Sequence record: OM386653.1
Direction: 5' to 3' (one strand)
From: Escherichia phage vB_EcoM_ESCO8
DNA: 64,000 nucleotides
In this document: piece after piece, positions 3,417 through 61,341 of the stretch
Position numbering within the stretch: position 1 is the stretch's first letter
Layout: the number at the start of each line of letters is the position of its first letter
Notes under the pieces: generated by a model
Told to the model about the DNA's origin: nothing
What the model saw: the letters and a program-made list of their open reading frames with translations, nothing else
The model's database searches: none
Position numbers and translations under genes: made by a program

Positions 3417-3971
3417 ATGATTCAAGCAACAAAAATCGAAGATTTGTTGATCATTCAACCTGACGTTTACGGAGATGAACGTGGTTTTTTCTTAGAAAGT
3501 TTTAATCAGGCTTTATATGATCAATACATAGGTAAACAAAACTTTGTCCAAGATAACCATTCACGTTCTATTCGAGGAGTTCTACGTGGGCTTCATTTTC
3601 AAAAGAAAAACCCACAAGGGAAGTTAGTACGTTGTGTTCGTGGTGAAGTTTATGATGTTGCTGTAGATATTAGGGTTGGTAGTCCAACATTTGGAGAATG
3701 GGTAGGTGTTCTCTTATCTGAAAAGAATAAAACACAATTTTGGATTCCTCCTGGTTTCGCTCATGGCTTTGTTGTGATTAGTGACATTGCTGATTTTGAA
3801 TATAAATGTACAGAATATTACGATCCGACTTCAGAGTGTAGTCTTGCGTGGAATGATCCAGATATCAATATTGATTGGGGTTTTGATTTAATCTTTAATG
3901 ATATTAATTTTAAACCTATCTTGTCACAAAAAGATCAGCAAGCCAAAACACTAAAGGAGATCATATTTTGA
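3417..3971 (+). CDS. rmlC: dTDP-4-dehydrorhamnose 3,5-epimerase
   Basis: 184 aa cupin-sized protein with RGLHFQ and FAHGF motifs; third gene of rml cluster. Confidence 0.85.
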   Translation: MIQATKIEDLLIIQPDVYGDERGFFLESFNQALYDQYIGKQNFVQDNHSRSIRGVLRGLHFQKKNPQGKLVRCVRGEVYDVAVDIRVGSPTFGEWVGVLLSEKNKTQFWIPPGFAHGFVVISDIADFEYKCTEYYDPTSECSLAWNDPDINIDWGFDLIFNDINFKPILSQKDQQAKTLKEIIF

Positions 3972-4798
3972 CAAAATTTTTAATCTTTGGTTCAAAAGGT
4001 CAATTAGGACAGTCTTTGGCAAAAGTTGCGCCCGAAGATGTTATTTTGATTGAAGCAAGTGATGTAGACATTACCAACTTTAAAGATGTTATGAATAGTC
4101 TTGTACAGCATGTGCCTGATGTTGTTGTGAATTGTGCGGCTTACACGGCAGTAGATAAAGCTGAAGAAGATGTTAACACCTGTATAAATGTTAATGCATA
4201 CGGTGCAACAAACATTGCCAAAGCATGTAATGATTTACTGATACAGTTTGTACATATTTCAACAGACTATGTTTTTGATGGGCATGTTGCTGGCACAGAA
4301 GATAGTAAAACAAACCCCTTGAACACCTACGGTTACAGTAAACAATTAGGTGAAACTTTAGTACAAACAGTTTGTCCTACAGCACTTATTATCAGAACAG
4401 CTTCTGTTTATAGTGAATTTGGACATAACTTTTTGAAAACTATGTTGGAACGCTACAACGGTGGTCAAAAAGAATTTAATGTAGTATGTGATCATTTGTC
4501 ATGTCCTACTTATGCACCTGATCTTGCAGAAACAATTTTTAAACTTGTAAAAGATGGTGTAAATAGTAAAGTTGTACACTATGCAGGTGCAGATTATATT
4601 TCTTGGTATGATTTTGCACGAAAGATATTTCTTGTTATAGATTTATCTGTTACAGTTAATCCTGTATCTGCTTCAACCTATAATTCCAAAGCAGTCAGAC
4701 CAGCAACATCTTATTTAAAAACAGATCCTACTTTAAATCCGCGAAGTGTTGATAGCGGTATTGTAAGAACTTTAACTATACTTTTAAACAAGGAGTGA
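3968..4798 (+). CDS. rmlD: dTDP-4-dehydrorhamnose reductase
   Basis: 276 aa; N-terminal Rossmann-like FGSKGQLGQSL; position after rmlC; TTG start overlapping rmlC stop. Confidence 0.75.
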   Translation: MTKFLIFGSKGQLGQSLAKVAPEDVILIEASDVDITNFKDVMNSLVQHVPDVVVNCAAYTAVDKAEEDVNTCINVNAYGATNIAKACNDLLIQFVHISTDYVFDGHVAGTEDSKTNPLNTYGYSKQLGETLVQTVCPTALIIRTASVYSEFGHNFLKTMLERYNGGQKEFNVVCDHLSCPTYAPDLAETIFKLVKDGVNSKVVHYAGADYISWYDFARKIFLVIDLSVTVNPVSASTYNSKAVRPATSYLKTDPTLNPRSVDSGIVRTLTILLNKE

Positions 4799-5061
4799 AA
4801 ATGAATTTTATTATCTACGGTAAACCAAATTGTCCTTTCTGCACTAACGCTAAGATTCTACTAGAACAGCGTGAACAGGATTTTAAATATCTTACCTTAG
4901 ATGAAGACTATTCTTTAGATCAGATTCAGAATCTGGTTTTAGAGAAAACAGGTGTTCTACCACGCACATTTCCTCAGATTTTTGTGGAAGATGGTGAACA
5001 GCTAACCCACGTAGGAGGTTTTTCTGAACTACGTGAATTCATGGCTCAGATTGCGGAGTAA
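4795..5061 (+). CDS. glutaredoxin (NrdC/NrdH-like redoxin)
   Basis: 88 aa; active-site CPFC near N-terminus, TFPQIFV and GGF motifs typical of glutaredoxins. Confidence 0.8.
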   Translation: MKMNFIIYGKPNCPFCTNAKILLEQREQDFKYLTLDEDYSLDQIQNLVLEKTGVLPRTFPQIFVEDGEQLTHVGGFSELREFMAQIAE

Positions 5062-5760: not shown

Positions 5761-6513
5761 ATGGGAAACAAAACCGCAAAGGCTCGTCGTCAATCAGCAG
5801 CCAATGATGACAAACGTGCCAGTCGTTATGCGGCTAAAGCAGTAGGAAATGATGATTACCGTCTTGATGAATTTACCCCTGTTGGGAATCAAGAAGCTAT
5901 TGTAAGAAGCATGGTTTGGAATGATTTAACCATTGTTAATGCCCCAGCAGGAACAGGAAAAACGACAACAGCACTATGGAAAGCATTGCAAATGCTTAAA
6001 GCTGGTGACTTCAGAAAGTTGATTTTCCTTAAAAACCCGACAGAAGTAGGTGATGATCAAATTGGTTTCTTATCTGGAGATAAGACTGATAAACTAGCAG
6101 CACACTACGAATCAACTAAAAGAATTTTCCAACAGTTTATGACTGCAAATAAATTGGAAAACGATATTGCAAGTGGCAAAATTGAACTTAATATTCCAAA
6201 CTATGCACTAGGTGCTACGTGGGATAACAGCATTATTCTTATTGATGAAGTTCAACTTATGTCACCAAATACAGTAAAACTTCTCCTTGAGCGAGCAGGT
6301 CTTAATACACGTATTGTCATTATGGGTGATGTTAATCAAACATATGCAATTAAACGAAGAGCTAACGGGTTAGGTGATTTGTTAGATCGTGTTGTTCCTA
6401 TTAATGAAGAAGGAGAAAGGGAAGCTATTGTGGATTTTATTGGTTATGTTGAAATGACAACTGCTGATAACCAACGTTCCCGTTTGTCTCAGTTCATCAC
6501 GGAAGTATATTAA
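5761..6513 (+). CDS. phoH: PhoH-like ATPase
   Basis: 250 aa; Walker A NAPAGTGKTT, Walker B ILIDEVQ, VIMGDVNQ motif. Confidence 0.85.
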   Translation: MGNKTAKARRQSAANDDKRASRYAAKAVGNDDYRLDEFTPVGNQEAIVRSMVWNDLTIVNAPAGTGKTTTALWKALQMLKAGDFRKLIFLKNPTEVGDDQIGFLSGDKTDKLAAHYESTKRIFQQFMTANKLENDIASGKIELNIPNYALGATWDNSIILIDEVQLMSPNTVKLLLERAGLNTRIVIMGDVNQTYAIKRRANGLGDLLDRVVPINEEGEREAIVDFIGYVEMTTADNQRSRLSQFITEVY

Positions 6514-6549: not shown

Positions 6550-7044
6550 ATGACGCTAATTGAGATTGATCGCAATGGTATTGATGAATGCTATCAAGCT
6601 GGCTTAGTTAAGCCGAATGAGTTTAGACAGATTTATATTGACAAGATTGAAAAAGAAATATCTCTTCGTTTAGAGAACATGACAACTTTGCAAAAAGTTC
6701 AGATGTTTTTTAGTTGGTTAAAAGGCGAGGATTGGCTAACTAAATATTACCAGGAATTATCTGATAGTCAAGAAGGCTTGTTTGAGTGTATAATAAATAT
6801 AGCTGGGTCTAATTCAGAATTACTCCTGATTGATGAAGAAGATTCTAAACTTCTTTTTCTTAGCAGTATCTTTCACAAGAAATCTATGTTAGTAAGAAAT
6901 TGCAGTGATTTACTAAATCATCCACTAACAAGAACTAATAAAATTCTTGTGGATAAAGAAACACTAAGAGCTATTGATTACCTCCGTAAATATGTAAGCG
7001 GTGGTAAAGCAGTCCTTAAAACACTACAGGAGGAAGTACAATGA
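6550..7044 (+). CDS. hypothetical protein (164 aa)
   Basis: ORF track; stop overlaps next start. Confidence 0.5.
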   Translation: MTLIEIDRNGIDECYQAGLVKPNEFRQIYIDKIEKEISLRLENMTTLQKVQMFFSWLKGEDWLTKYYQELSDSQEGLFECIINIAGSNSELLLIDEEDSKLLFLSSIFHKKSMLVRNCSDLLNHPLTRTNKILVDKETLRAIDYLRKYVSGGKAVLKTLQEEVQ

Positions 7045-7694
7045 CAACAATTATTGCAACACGTAACAAAATTCTGTCTGACGGTAAAGTAACAGTAGGT
7101 AGTCGTGTAGACACTTTAAATTTCAAGAAAGTGCGTAAAATTGGGGATTACCTTGTTGGTGGTGCAGGACGTCTGTCTTCTATCTTGACTTTCTTTTCTT
7201 GGTTCGAACAAAACTTACAATGCCAAGCAGCACAAGAGACAATCCCAGGTTTGGTGATCCAGTCAGATCCTGATAAAGAAGATGAAGAGTTTGTGGCATT
7301 GGTTGTTCACCCAGACGGTAAAATTTATATGCACGAGGGTAATAATCCAACACGAGCATATCCTTTAACTGAAGATTATTATGCTGTTGGTAGTGGGGCA
7401 GATTTTGCTTTAGCAGCTTTAGATGCAGGGGCAACTCCAGAAGAAGCGATGGAAGTTGCAAAACTACGAGATGCTTTTTCCGGTGGTGAAACTTTTGTCG
7501 AAGAGATCGAAGAACAACTGGAGCTAACAGCGGAAGATATTCTGAACTTCAGCAAGGAGCAACTAATTAGTATGCTGTTGACTGGTGATCCTGATAGTGA
7601 TGAAGCTGAAAGTATTTTAGCAGAAATGAAAGAATCACAAGAAAAAGTATTGACAGTCTCTGAAAAACTTGATAAAGTGTCCTCTGATAATTAA
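7041..7694 (+). CDS. HslV-like Ntn peptidase (proteasome-type) with acidic C-terminal extension
   Basis: N-terminal MTTIIATRN (Thr right after Met as in HslV), GGAGRLSS and YAVGSGADFALAA resemble HslV GFAGGTAD / GSGGPYA blocks; no HslU partner in window. Confidence 0.65.
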   Translation: MTTIIATRNKILSDGKVTVGSRVDTLNFKKVRKIGDYLVGGAGRLSSILTFFSWFEQNLQCQAAQETIPGLVIQSDPDKEDEEFVALVVHPDGKIYMHEGNNPTRAYPLTEDYYAVGSGADFALAALDAGATPEEAMEVAKLRDAFSGGETFVEEIEEQLELTAEDILNFSKEQLISMLLTGDPDSDEAESILAEMKESQEKVLTVSEKLDKVSSDN

Positions 7695-7702
7695 TCTAGT
7701 AT

Positions 7703-7725
7703 AAACCCCCCTTTAAGGGGGTTAT
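7703..7725 (+). terminator. rho-independent terminator (ccccccTTTAAggggg)
   Basis: Perfect hairpin directly after HslV-like stop followed by tt. Confidence 0.5.
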
Positions 7726-7736
7726 TAGGAGGAGAT

Positions 7737-8165
7737 ATGTTACCAGTACCTGTAACCTTTGTAGAAAAAGCCTACTACTCTTTAGAACAAAACTGTAAAA
7801 GAGCTAAAAATTTTATTGAAAGTTTAGCAGAACAGCGTTACACTGTATCTAAAAAGGGATGGTTCAGAACTTCACAATATTTAGTCAACCCTTTCGGAGA
7901 AGTTCGTGTGTTGTATGGCAACACAGAAAATATCTTAGAAAGAATGTTAGAACTAGATAGGATCTCCTCCTGTGATTATCAACTGTTGAAATTTTACGAT
8001 GTGTCAGAAAGCGTTAAAAACTTTCTTGACGACTTATGTAAACGAAAAACAGAAGAAGATACAATACCAGTATCTATGGAAGAATTAACATTCTTAAGAG
8101 ATATTATGGTTTTTGAAGAAGACCCTGAAATCACAAAAGAGGAGATTTTAAGTAGTGGCAAATAA
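7737..8165 (+). CDS. hypothetical protein (142 aa)
   Basis: ORF track; aggaggagat RBS before ATG. Confidence 0.5.
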   Translation: MLPVPVTFVEKAYYSLEQNCKRAKNFIESLAEQRYTVSKKGWFRTSQYLVNPFGEVRVLYGNTENILERMLELDRISSCDYQLLKFYDVSESVKNFLDDLCKRKTEEDTIPVSMEELTFLRDIMVFEEDPEITKEEILSSGK

Positions 8166-44487: not shown

Positions 44488-45615
44488 TTAAAACACGCTT
44501 GCCAAAGTTGCACCATTGGTGATAGTTGGTTCCAGAACAATACGGAAAGAATCTTCTGGATCATCACTAAACACAACGATTTTACCGCCTGTAATAAGAT
44601 CTGCTTTCATTTTTGTCGCATTCAATGGAATTCGAGCATCTCCTTCATCATCAAAAACCACGTAAGAGCTATTAGCAAGGGCTTCTTTAGAGTCTGCATC
44701 ACTTGGAGATGACAAGTACACGTCTAGTGTGCACGAGCCACCTAAAAAGATTGCAGGTGTGAAGTTATGCCAACTAGATACCCAGCTAACTTTCTGAAGT
44801 TTCCCATTAATAACAACGCTGCTGATATCCCACTTATTACCACCACCCAAAGAAACGCCCATCATAGAGATGCATTCTTTAAAGGATAAATCAGGGTAGA
44901 AATTAAGTTCTTCTACTATACCTTGGATCACATCAAAGGACAACTCTAAACTTACATCCCAAAGCCTTTGGAAATTATCAAAGTGTGCTTTGTTATCCAG
45001 GTTTTTATCTAAATAGTCAATCATAGTTTCTAGTGAGATTTTATCATAATTAAAATTATAAAACACACGACTAGGACGATTTAGAAAGAATTCAGAGATA
45101 AAGCCACTGTTTTTAGTTAGAATAAACAGTTTATTACCACTGCCAGTACCATCTAACAAAGTGAGAAGTGCTTCTTGATCTTGTTTCTTCTCATACACTT
45201 TATCAAACTCGTCAAAAATAATCACTGCTTTGTCGGTGATCTTGCTAATAAGTTCAATGAAATTAGCATCGCTGTAGGCTTGAGTAACCATAATAGTTGG
45301 AATACCTTCTTCTACAAGGTCACGACTAATGAGTTTGGCTAACATAGTTTTACCACTACCCTTAGTTCCTGTCAGAAGCAATCCTGTATTTTTACCTTGT
45401 GCACTCCGGCGATGGAATGTACGGATAACGTGATTTGCTCGTTTTTCTGTTTCACCATACAGAACATCCGGTACACCTGTCAGATTACCACGGCTTAAAA
45501 AATAATTGCCAAGGGGATCACGACTAACAGTATAGAATCCAGGTGGAAGATAGTTAGATTCCACGCCCATATCTTTATTTACACTTACAATATCACCATA
45601 AATCGTGTATTTCAT
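44488..45615 (-). CDS. AAA-type P-loop ATPase, paralog 1
   Basis: 375 aa; Walker A GTKGSGKT, Walker B IIFDEFD, NRPSR arginine motif; about 45% identical by eye over the ATPase core to 60181..61341. Confidence 0.6.
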   Translation of the reverse strand: MKYTIYGDIVSVNKDMGVESNYLPPGFYTVSRDPLGNYFLSRGNLTGVPDVLYGETEKRANHVIRTFHRRSAQGKNTGLLLTGTKGSGKTMLAKLISRDLVEEGIPTIMVTQAYSDANFIELISKITDKAVIIFDEFDKVYEKKQDQEALLTLLDGTGSGNKLFILTKNSGFISEFFLNRPSRVFYNFNYDKISLETMIDYLDKNLDNKAHFDNFQRLWDVSLELSFDVIQGIVEELNFYPDLSFKECISMMGVSLGGGNKWDISSVVINGKLQKVSWVSSWHNFTPAIFLGGSCTLDVYLSSPSDADSKEALANSSYVVFDDEGDARIPLNATKMKADLITGGKIVVFSDDPEDSFRIVLEPTITNGATLASVF

Positions 45616-60180: not shown

Positions 60181-61341
60181 ATGTTTACAGTATTCGGCAA
60201 TCAAATCTTCCTGCGTCAGAAGTCTGGTACAGATATTGAAGAAATTCCAGCAGGAACTTTTGGTGTAGGTGTTACTCAAAGTGGCGAGTTCTTCCTGTAT
60301 CCTAAAAACGATATGGAAGTCCCTTCAGTAACATACGGTGATACTGATGATAAATCAGAACGTATTATCAAGACGTTCCTTAGCCGCAAAGGTAAAAACA
60401 CAGGTGTTCTCCTTGAGGGTACGAAGGGTAGCGGTAAAACTTTGCAAGCTAAAATGCTGTCTTCTGCTCTTCGTGAAATGGGTATTCCTACTATTTCTAT
60501 CGGTAGTGCTTTTAATGGTGAAGGCTTTATCAATTTTATGTCTAAAATCACACAACCTGTGATGATTATGATCGATGAATTTGATAAACTGTATGCTGAA
60601 AAAGATGCACAGGATGGTTTGCTTACCCTGCTGGATGGTGTTGGTGGCTATGACAAGCTGTTTGTATTGACTAAAAATGATGGTTATGTATCAGAATTTT
60701 TGCGTAATCGCCCTAGCCGTATTTTCTACAGCTTTAACTATAAGAAACTACCTAAAGCTACTATGGATGATTATCTGGCTAAAAATCTGGAGAACAAAGC
60801 CTTTTTACCAGATTTTGAAACGCTTTATAATCTGTCCGTGGACTTGAACTTTGATATTGTTCAGTCATTAGTAGAAGAACTTAACCGTTACCCTAATGAC
60901 AAATTCTCTGATGCACTTGCATTAATGGGTATCAGTATTACTGAACACCGCTATGCTGCAAAAGAAGTTAAACTTCTGAAAGTTAACGGTGTAGATCGTA
61001 CAGGAGATGTTTCGGCAGATACCGATATTGACGGTATGACAGCACAGGGTTTGTTTAGCGGTAATCGTTATGTTGTAGCTGTAGACCATAAGCTAGGAGA
61101 AGAGCATCTTCCTGAAATGGAAGGAGTCGTTACCGTAGAAGATAAAGACGAAGAAGGTGACTACTACTGGGGTGTAGACCGTATCTTGCTGACGTATGAT
61201 GAAAAACACATCCGTACAATGGGCGGTGACGGTTATCACTTTATGTTCACCGATGATAAAGGTAACAACATTGAAGTTGTTATTAAAAACAAAGAACGTA
61301 AAAACTACACAGAGTATGTGTTTGGTGGTCGTTCTTACTAA
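60181..61341 (+). CDS. AAA-type P-loop ATPase, paralog 2
   Basis: 386 aa; Walker A GTKGSGKT, Walker B IMIDEFD, NRPSR; paralog of 44488..45615. Confidence 0.6.
   Translation: MFTVFGNQIFLRQKSGTDIEEIPAGTFGVGVTQSGEFFLYPKNDMEVPSVTYGDTDDKSERIIKTFLSRKGKNTGVLLEGTKGSGKTLQAKMLSSALREMGIPTISIGSAFNGEGFINFMSKITQPVMIMIDEFDKLYAEKDAQDGLLTLLDGVGGYDKLFVLTKNDGYVSEFLRNRPSRIFYSFNYKKLPKATMDDYLAKNLENKAFLPDFETLYNLSVDLNFDIVQSLVEELNRYPNDKFSDALALMGISITEHRYAAKEVKLLKVNGVDRTGDVSADTDIDGMTAQGLFSGNRYVVAVDHKLGEEHLPEMEGVVTVEDKDEEGDYYWGVDRILLTYDEKHIRTMGGDGYHFMFTDDKGNNIEVVIKNKERKNYTEYVFGGRSY

Follow-up and report, generated by a model that had tools for sequence, protein, structure and literature searches.

A predicted phage-borne threonine peptidase of the proteasome/HslV superfamily lacking helix H2 in Escherichia phage vB_EcoM_ESCO8

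The unfoldase HslU docks onto bacterial HslV (ClpQ) by inserting its own C-termini into pockets between HslV subunits, which are lined by residues 54 and 57 of helix H1, residues 79 and 80 of helix H2, and residue 114 (PMC6429459). Other homologs have been described for which such a partner is not known. The pore loop is long and acidic in BPH from Thiobacillus denitrificans (PDB 5OVS/5OVT), an orphan homolog of the double-ring type for which no unfoldase is known, and short in HslV, which HslU gates (Fuchs, Alva and Lupas 2021, PMC8665760). PPH and RPC are proteasome homologs that do not have helix H2, and PPH occurs in Caudovirales; for the new proteasome homologs, neither a genomic context nor a co-occurring AAA+ partner was found in the same survey (Fuchs et al. 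2021, PMC8665760). Here, we analysed a proteasome-like peptidase gene in a stretch of 64,000 nucleotides from Escherichia phage vB_EcoM_ESCO8 (sequence record OM386653.1), which we refer to as the window. The gene occupies positions 7041..7694 on the plus strand of the window, stop codon included, as an uninterrupted open reading frame (ORF) encoding 217 amino acids.

We regard it as reasonably probable that the gene encodes a phage-borne threonine peptidase of the H2-less, PPH/RPC-like type, which acts independently of an unfoldase on peptides or on unfolded or disordered proteins. The window comes from a phi92-like E. coli myophage (Stephanstirmvirinae, Justusliebigvirus), and its first 20 kb are 98-99% identical to the phages inny, PATM, ALITA and others. 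Proteins 99-100% identical to the peptidase occur in dozens of GenBank records, among them phi92 gene 058 and phAPEC8 gp175, under the labels 'HslV family peptidase', 'putative 20S proteasome', 'putative proteasome component' or 'nucleophile aminohydrolase'. Public annotation and the literature already cover the peptidase, the family to which it is assigned, and the existence of orphan proteasome homologs in phages. The labels in GenBank and in PHROG 1040 concern the same sequence, but they were given by homology and imply an HslVU-type function that is unsupported by the features described here. The present analysis adds the assignment to an H2-less PPH/RPC type in which the features for HslU docking are not conserved, a conserved helical motif and family-wide acidity in the C-terminal tail, and a conserved, apparently translationally coupled neighbour of novel fold, termed X.

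Catalytic core and active site

The coding sequence starts with ATG-ACA-ACA, specifying Met-Thr-Thr (the protein begins MTTIIATRNK), and is preceded by the Shine-Dalgarno sequence AGGAGG at 7028-7033 (+), a strong ribosome-binding site (RBS) located 7 nt 5' of the ATG. Since only seven in-frame codons lie between the previous stop codon and this ATG, a longer N-terminus or a propeptide is not possible. The Thr2 codon (7044..7046, +) encodes the predicted nucleophile, which would become N-terminal upon removal of Met1 and which aligns with Thr1 of HslV.

The protein matched PHROG 1040, 'peptidase HslV family', with E=8e-62 and scored 25.1 bits with the Pfam Proteasome family (PF00227), above the gathering threshold of 22.4 bits. 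Its top sequence matches in the PDB were HslV chains, with E-values from 5e-8 to 4e-5. We evaluated conservation in an alignment of 52 homologs reaching down to 32% identity. T2, T3, D14, K30, G41, G43, G117, S118 and G119 were invariant in this set, and R32, G40 and A42 were kept in at least 90% of the homologs; the E. coli HslV equivalents of the conserved residues in the alignment are Thr1, Thr2, Asp17, Lys33, Arg35, Gly45, Gly48, Ser124 and Gly125. The catalytic core, comprising residues 1-157 (7041..7511, +), accordingly contains Asp14, Lys30, Arg32 and the two glycine blocks G40-G41-A42-G43 and G117-S118-G119, together with helix H1, an acidic loop at residues 68-83, and helices H3 and H4.

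The AlphaFold2 model, built on the homolog alignment, had a mean predicted local distance difference test (pLDDT) score of 83.5, with most of the core above 90, and displayed the alpha-beta-beta-alpha sandwich of N-terminal nucleophile (Ntn) hydrolases. Foldseek matched the model to 20S beta subunits, HslV and BPH with a probability of 1.0 and E~1e-10. An earlier reading of the DNA, made from the sequence only, had described an HslV-like peptidase with a threonine placed right after the initiator methionine as the Ntn nucleophile and with HslV-like glycine-rich blocks. All three points are borne out by the predicted structure and by the alignment, where the threonine is found in 52/52 homologs and G41, G43 and the whole G117-S118-G119 block do not vary. 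By sequence score, fold and catalytic residues alike, the protein belongs to the proteasome/HslV superfamily, the Ntn threonine peptidases of MEROPS T1. Its active site is intact as judged from the sequence, and the peptidase is predicted to be catalytically competent.

The same fold could also serve a different Ntn enzyme that is not a protease, such as a connectase-like ligase or transpeptidase, or an amidohydrolase whose substrate is a small molecule or a modified protein. The superfamily includes connectase, which is a monomeric ligase, and subunits that have lost H2 and gained a C-terminal arm might be unable to form canonical double rings (PMC8665760); the GenBank label 'nucleophile aminohydrolase' would fit such an enzyme as well. 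However, the full catalytic set of the proteasome and HslV and the GSG oxyanion/substrate-binding block are invariant, and the nearest relatives by sequence and by fold are proteolytic subunits, which makes a non-proteolytic role improbable.

Another possibility is a prohead (capsid maturation) protease or some other virion-associated protease, given that the annotation of the complete ALITA phage genome includes no prohead protease. Known prohead proteases are of the HK97/herpesvirus type or of the ClpP type, and the fold of the peptidase is unrelated to them. Moreover, about 100 kb of the linear ALITA record separates the portal/capsid module from the peptidase gene, which sits inside a block of metabolism genes, and the peptidase is absent from the text of the 2026 paper on the phi92 virion structure (PMC13450770). 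We consider a role in the virion highly improbable.

Helix H2, the HslU pocket and related peptidases

The phage peptidase shares with HslV the fold, the Met-Thr-Thr start, the catalytic residues and the GSG block, at a sequence identity of about 29%. It differs in the region that receives HslU. In the AlphaFold2 model, a single long helix H1 (residues 45-67) is followed by a loop (68-83) and by the next strand, and helix H2 of HslV and the proteasome is absent; the deletion of H2 was also visible in the alignments with HslV. Half of the pocket for the HslU tail is consequently gone, as the HslV pocket positions 79 and 80 fall approximately into the non-helical segment that replaces H2. The pocket is further changed by the replacement of F54 with Leu, of Q114 with Tyr or Leu, and of K28, which in the 1G3I structure binds the HslU carboxylate, with Thr, Gln or Ser. 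At the pore, the HslV residues L88 and R89 are replaced, to the same approximation, by the invariant acidic pair D81 and E82. With the NCBIfam HslV equivalogs (NF003964 / TIGR03692), the protein reached 34.0 bits against a cutoff of 137 and 31.6 bits against a cutoff of 157.75. The gene has no adjacent hslU, and the protein carries an additional acidic arm at its C-terminus. The phage peptidase is not an HslV orthologue.

These differences bear on the suggestion of the sequence-only reading that the peptidase recruits host HslU or a ClpX-type unfoldase. Because the elements of HslV that receive HslU are missing or altered, docking on host HslU, or on another host unfoldase such as ClpX, for the degradation of host or defence proteins is disfavoured, and we consider it unlikely, even though the closest solved sequence relatives are HslV chains, the H1 residue F57 and Arg35 of HslV are conserved in the phage peptidase, and neither the window nor the ALITA genome supplies an unfoldase of the phage. 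All known hosts are Proteobacteria, nearly all of which carry hslVU to our knowledge. On the other hand, the score far below the HslV cutoff points away from such an arrangement, and the acidic tail would have no obvious role in it, as HslU contributes its own C-termini to docking.

The H2-less, unfoldase-independent peptidase that we favour finds its closest counterparts in PPH and RPC. Like these, the ESCO8 protein is a compact group-I homolog that keeps Thr1, Asp17 and Lys33 (HslV numbering), possesses neither a propeptide nor H2, and has no co-occurring AAA+ partner. It is carried by a tailed phage, as is PPH, and it has a C-terminal extension, as does RPC. However, PPH comprises about 140 residues, whereas the phage peptidase consists of a core of about 157 residues and an acidic arm of 60 residues, and it falls exactly into neither of the published size classes. 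RPC has been reported from proteobacterial genomes only, whereas the clade of the phage peptidase is essentially confined to phages. On the defining features in sequence and model, rather than by clustering with reference sequences, the peptidase fits an H2-less PPH/RPC-like branch and not HslV. BPH resembles it as an orphan with an acidic pore loop, and the folds matched in Foldseek with a probability of 1.0 and E=4e-10, albeit with a TM-score of only 0.47-0.55; BPH differs in being bacterial, in keeping both H1 and H2, and in having no C-terminal arm.

When 1.84 billion representative proteins were searched with a profile of the family, 57 clusters came up at E<1e-30; they ranged from 165 to 350 residues, and most were longer than the core, hence C-terminally extended. 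The next tier, at E~1e-20, contained mostly proteins of 137-155 residues with the same H2 deletion, interspersed with HslV-like proteins of about 177-182 residues that keep H2. The family is carried by 171 phage records, whereas bacterial carriage of the extended clade amounted to one 425-bp contig among 185,579 species genomes. The peptidase was present, at 60% identity or more, in all 133 Stephanstirmvirinae-like isolate records, and also in deeper lineages, and this retention indicates purifying selection.

Among the database records, the unannotated 'Campylobacter phage' A150, A145, C3 and A110a (MG065639, MG065645, MG065656 and MG065689) contain a peptidase gene that is 100% identical to that of E. 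coli Justusliebigvirus, and their genomes of about 146.4 kb match as well. The host labels of these four records look doubtful.

The acidic C-terminal arm

Residues 158-217 (7512..7691, +) constitute the C-terminal acidic extension, which stands out by its composition, column conservation and predicted helices. It contains 16 Asp/Glu and only 5 Lys/Arg residues, resulting in a net charge of -11 and an isoelectric point of 4.05. E. coli HslV ends at the alignment column of about residue 160, in agreement with the earlier description of a 60-residue acidic tail that is absent from bacterial HslV.

Within the extension, residues ~163-182 (LTAEDILNFSKEQLISMLLTG; window 7527-7586) are predicted to form two helices at 164-169 and 172-181, and T163, E165, E173 and L175 are kept in 79-92% of the homologs. 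Conservation falls to background beyond residue ~190, and a long acidic helix at 188-212 was predicted at low confidence in this variable region. According to the model, the tail is not uniformly disordered; it comprises a family-conserved helical motif followed by a variable acidic part. Acidity is a property of the family: in the 52 homologs, the segment following the core is 2-222 residues long (median 65), acidic residues account for a median fraction of 0.24, and the net charge has a median of -11. Some homologs, of 246-379 residues in total, bear extra C-terminal domains past the acidic arm, for example a Trp-rich segment ending in ...KWRLHNA, or a Cys-pair segment found in two homologs. 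The C-termini of superfamily members are directed away from the ring, where they could engage in interactions (Fuchs et al. 2021, PMC8665760).

Candidate partners, gene neighbourhood and proposed mode of action

As a complete genome, we examined that of ALITA, which is 98.8% identical to the window over the first 20 kb. Neither the window nor the ALITA genome as a whole contains a gene of the HslU, ClpX, ClpA or Lon type, as judged from the annotation, from a Walker-A scan, and from comparison of the candidates with Pfam, NCBIfam, PHROG and the PDB. The Walker-A scan of all ORFs of at least 150 residues yielded only a primase-helicase, a UvrD-like intein helicase, a PhoH-like protein, a 344-residue protein that is annotated as an endonuclease and has no Pfam match, and two paralogous ATPases. 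The UvrD-like helicase (ALITA 74755-77529) is split by an intein with Hint/Intein_splicing domains at residues ~254-600. The earlier statement that the window lacks an HslU ATPase therefore stands for the HslU/ClpX type, and the complete ALITA genome, examined along the lines of the full-genome search that it had called for, gave the same answer, but the window does hold two AAA-family ATPases as well as PhoH.

The two AAA-family ATPases belong to phrog_2376 and are encoded at 44488..45615 on the minus strand (375 residues) and at 60181..61341 on the plus strand (386 residues). Both weakly match classical AAA proteins, namely p97 D2, VAT, fidgetin and spastin (E=1e-4 to 7e-3). No aromatic-hydrophobic-Gly pore loop was found between their Walker A (GTKGSGKT) and Walker B (DEFDK) motifs, and neither has an HbYX or HslU-like C-terminus. 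Outside their own family, they are closest in PHROG to clamp loaders and to DnaC-like loaders. The phrog_2376 family spans 381 phage records and is dominated by phages of Enterococcus, Bacillus, Staphylococcus, Lactococcus and Lactobacillus; these mostly Herelleviridae-type phages of Gram-positive bacteria are absent from the list of peptidase matches. Given the missing pore loop and the broad occurrence of their family among phages lacking the peptidase, we rejected the two ATPases as specific partners.

Upstream of the peptidase, X (164 residues, phrog_14834; 6550..7044, +) is a candidate partner or regulator. Its TGA stop codon overlaps the ATG of the peptidase (ATGA), which suggests translational coupling. 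The model of X is confidently folded and all-alpha, and no structural relatives were found, so that its fold appears novel. X lies directly upstream of the peptidase in all five closer-clade lineages examined. The PhoH-like P-loop ATPase (5761..6513, +; Pfam PhoH, E=1.4e-35) is located two genes upstream of the peptidase, and 0.5-2.7 kb upstream of it in seven of the eight lineages sampled. The order RNR - glutaredoxin - lysozyme - PhoH - X - peptidase, on one strand, places the peptidase beside genes of nucleotide metabolism. It is shared by phAPEC8, with a peptidase identity of 71%, and by three metagenomic lineages, with 44-51%. In the distant Vibrio and Aeromonas phages, the upstream gene encodes a transposase, an endolysin-like protein or a second proteasome-like protein.

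This arrangement raises the question of whether the peptidase works with an ATPase of the phage, either PhoH, possibly bridged by X, or one of the phrog_2376 proteins. The order PhoH - (X) - peptidase is maintained on one strand in 7/8 lineages, down to 33% peptidase identity, X overlaps the start codon of the peptidase, and the phrog_2376 ATPases resemble proteins of the classical AAA clade, however weakly. Nevertheless, the whole block of RNR, glutaredoxin, lysozyme and PhoH is syntenic among related phages, and the order may be inherited rather than functional; the synteny of PhoH therefore speaks only weakly for a link in function. Many phages without any proteasome-like gene also carry PhoH. 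It matches P-loop families of the superfamily 1 helicase type (AAA_30, AAA_19, UvrD-helicase) and not protein unfoldases, and the phrog_2376 ATPases have the shortcomings described above. We judge a phage-encoded ATPase partner to be quite unlikely.

A more specific proposal is that PhoH, X and the H2-less peptidase form a cassette that operates as a functional unit. X would be an adaptor, gate or inhibitor that replaces the interface of H2 and HslU, possibly by binding the acidic arm, and the gene pair of Aeromonas phage 4L372D would have arrived at a comparable solution in parallel, a kind of viral 'mini-proteasome'. We consider this proposal speculative and rather unlikely. Aeromonas phage 4L372D (MK813939.1) carries two adjacent proteasome-like genes, at 3432-3983 (183 residues) and 4001-4885 (294 residues), both belonging to PHROG_1040. 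The 183-residue protein starts with MTCIIAL and matches PHROG_1040 with E=1e-25; the phage of the ESCO8 window has one copy only. The pair in 4L372D could form a hetero-oligomeric viral proteasome-like particle.

The downstream gene (7737..8165, +; 142 residues, phrog_15078) shares 46% identity with its phAPEC8 counterpart, and it adjoins the peptidase within Stephanstirmvirinae only. In the 42-nt gap 3' of the peptidase, just before the RBS of the next gene, lies a GC-rich hairpin, CCCCCC-TTTAA-GGGGG, at 7706..7721 (no strand assigned), which by its sequence could possibly be a weak terminator or an RNA-stability element. In a promoter and terminator scan around the peptidase, the counts were not above the shuffled control, and the hairpin was flagged on the minus strand only. 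In Escherichia phage VEcB, vecB_055 (267 residues) combines a PhoH Pfam domain with 99% identity to 71% of the peptidase. Its gene model was probably mis-called or contains a frameshift; in the window, X separates PhoH and the peptidase.

Returning to the unfoldase-independent peptidase, we propose the following mode of action. Host methionine aminopeptidase would remove Met1 and thereby expose the Thr nucleophile; E. coli HslV, which also begins with MTT, loses its Met in this way. The subunits probably assemble into HslV-like rings, and the enzyme would act without a dedicated AAA+ unfoldase on peptides or on unfolded or disordered proteins, a mode that has also been proposed for BPH and for the 20S proteasome in its uncapped form. 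The C-terminal arm would point away from the ring and might be a docking or regulatory element, and the translationally coupled X is a likely partner or regulator.

Several points weigh against this proposal. Free HslV without activation by HslU is a poor protease (PMC6429459), so that a mode independent of an unfoldase is not guaranteed. The alignment of the H2 region to HslV is uncertain, and the equivalences of the pore loop and the pocket are approximate. As for X, a homologue was not detectable next to the peptidase in the Vibrio and Aeromonas phages, where peptidase identity is down to 33-40%, and its synteny elsewhere may reflect only the shared ancestry of the phages. Finally, we found no experimental work on any family member in the searchable literature, where the family appears only in mentions by homology and in the survey of Fuchs et al., which is bioinformatic.

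Orphan proteasome homologs, including BPH, Anbu, PPH and their relatives, have no known function or partners. The family described here sits in phi92-like E. coli phages and in E. coli phages of the BASEL collection, which grow on K-12, and it thereby provides a tractable system for the question of what orphan homologs do, all the more as the small size of the protein makes for easy purification. If the peptidase degrades specific host or defence proteins, or works together with X, this would be the first function for a viral proteasome-like enzyme. If PhoH, X and the peptidase do form a unit, they would represent a new, self-contained way in which a phage controls a proteasome-like chamber.

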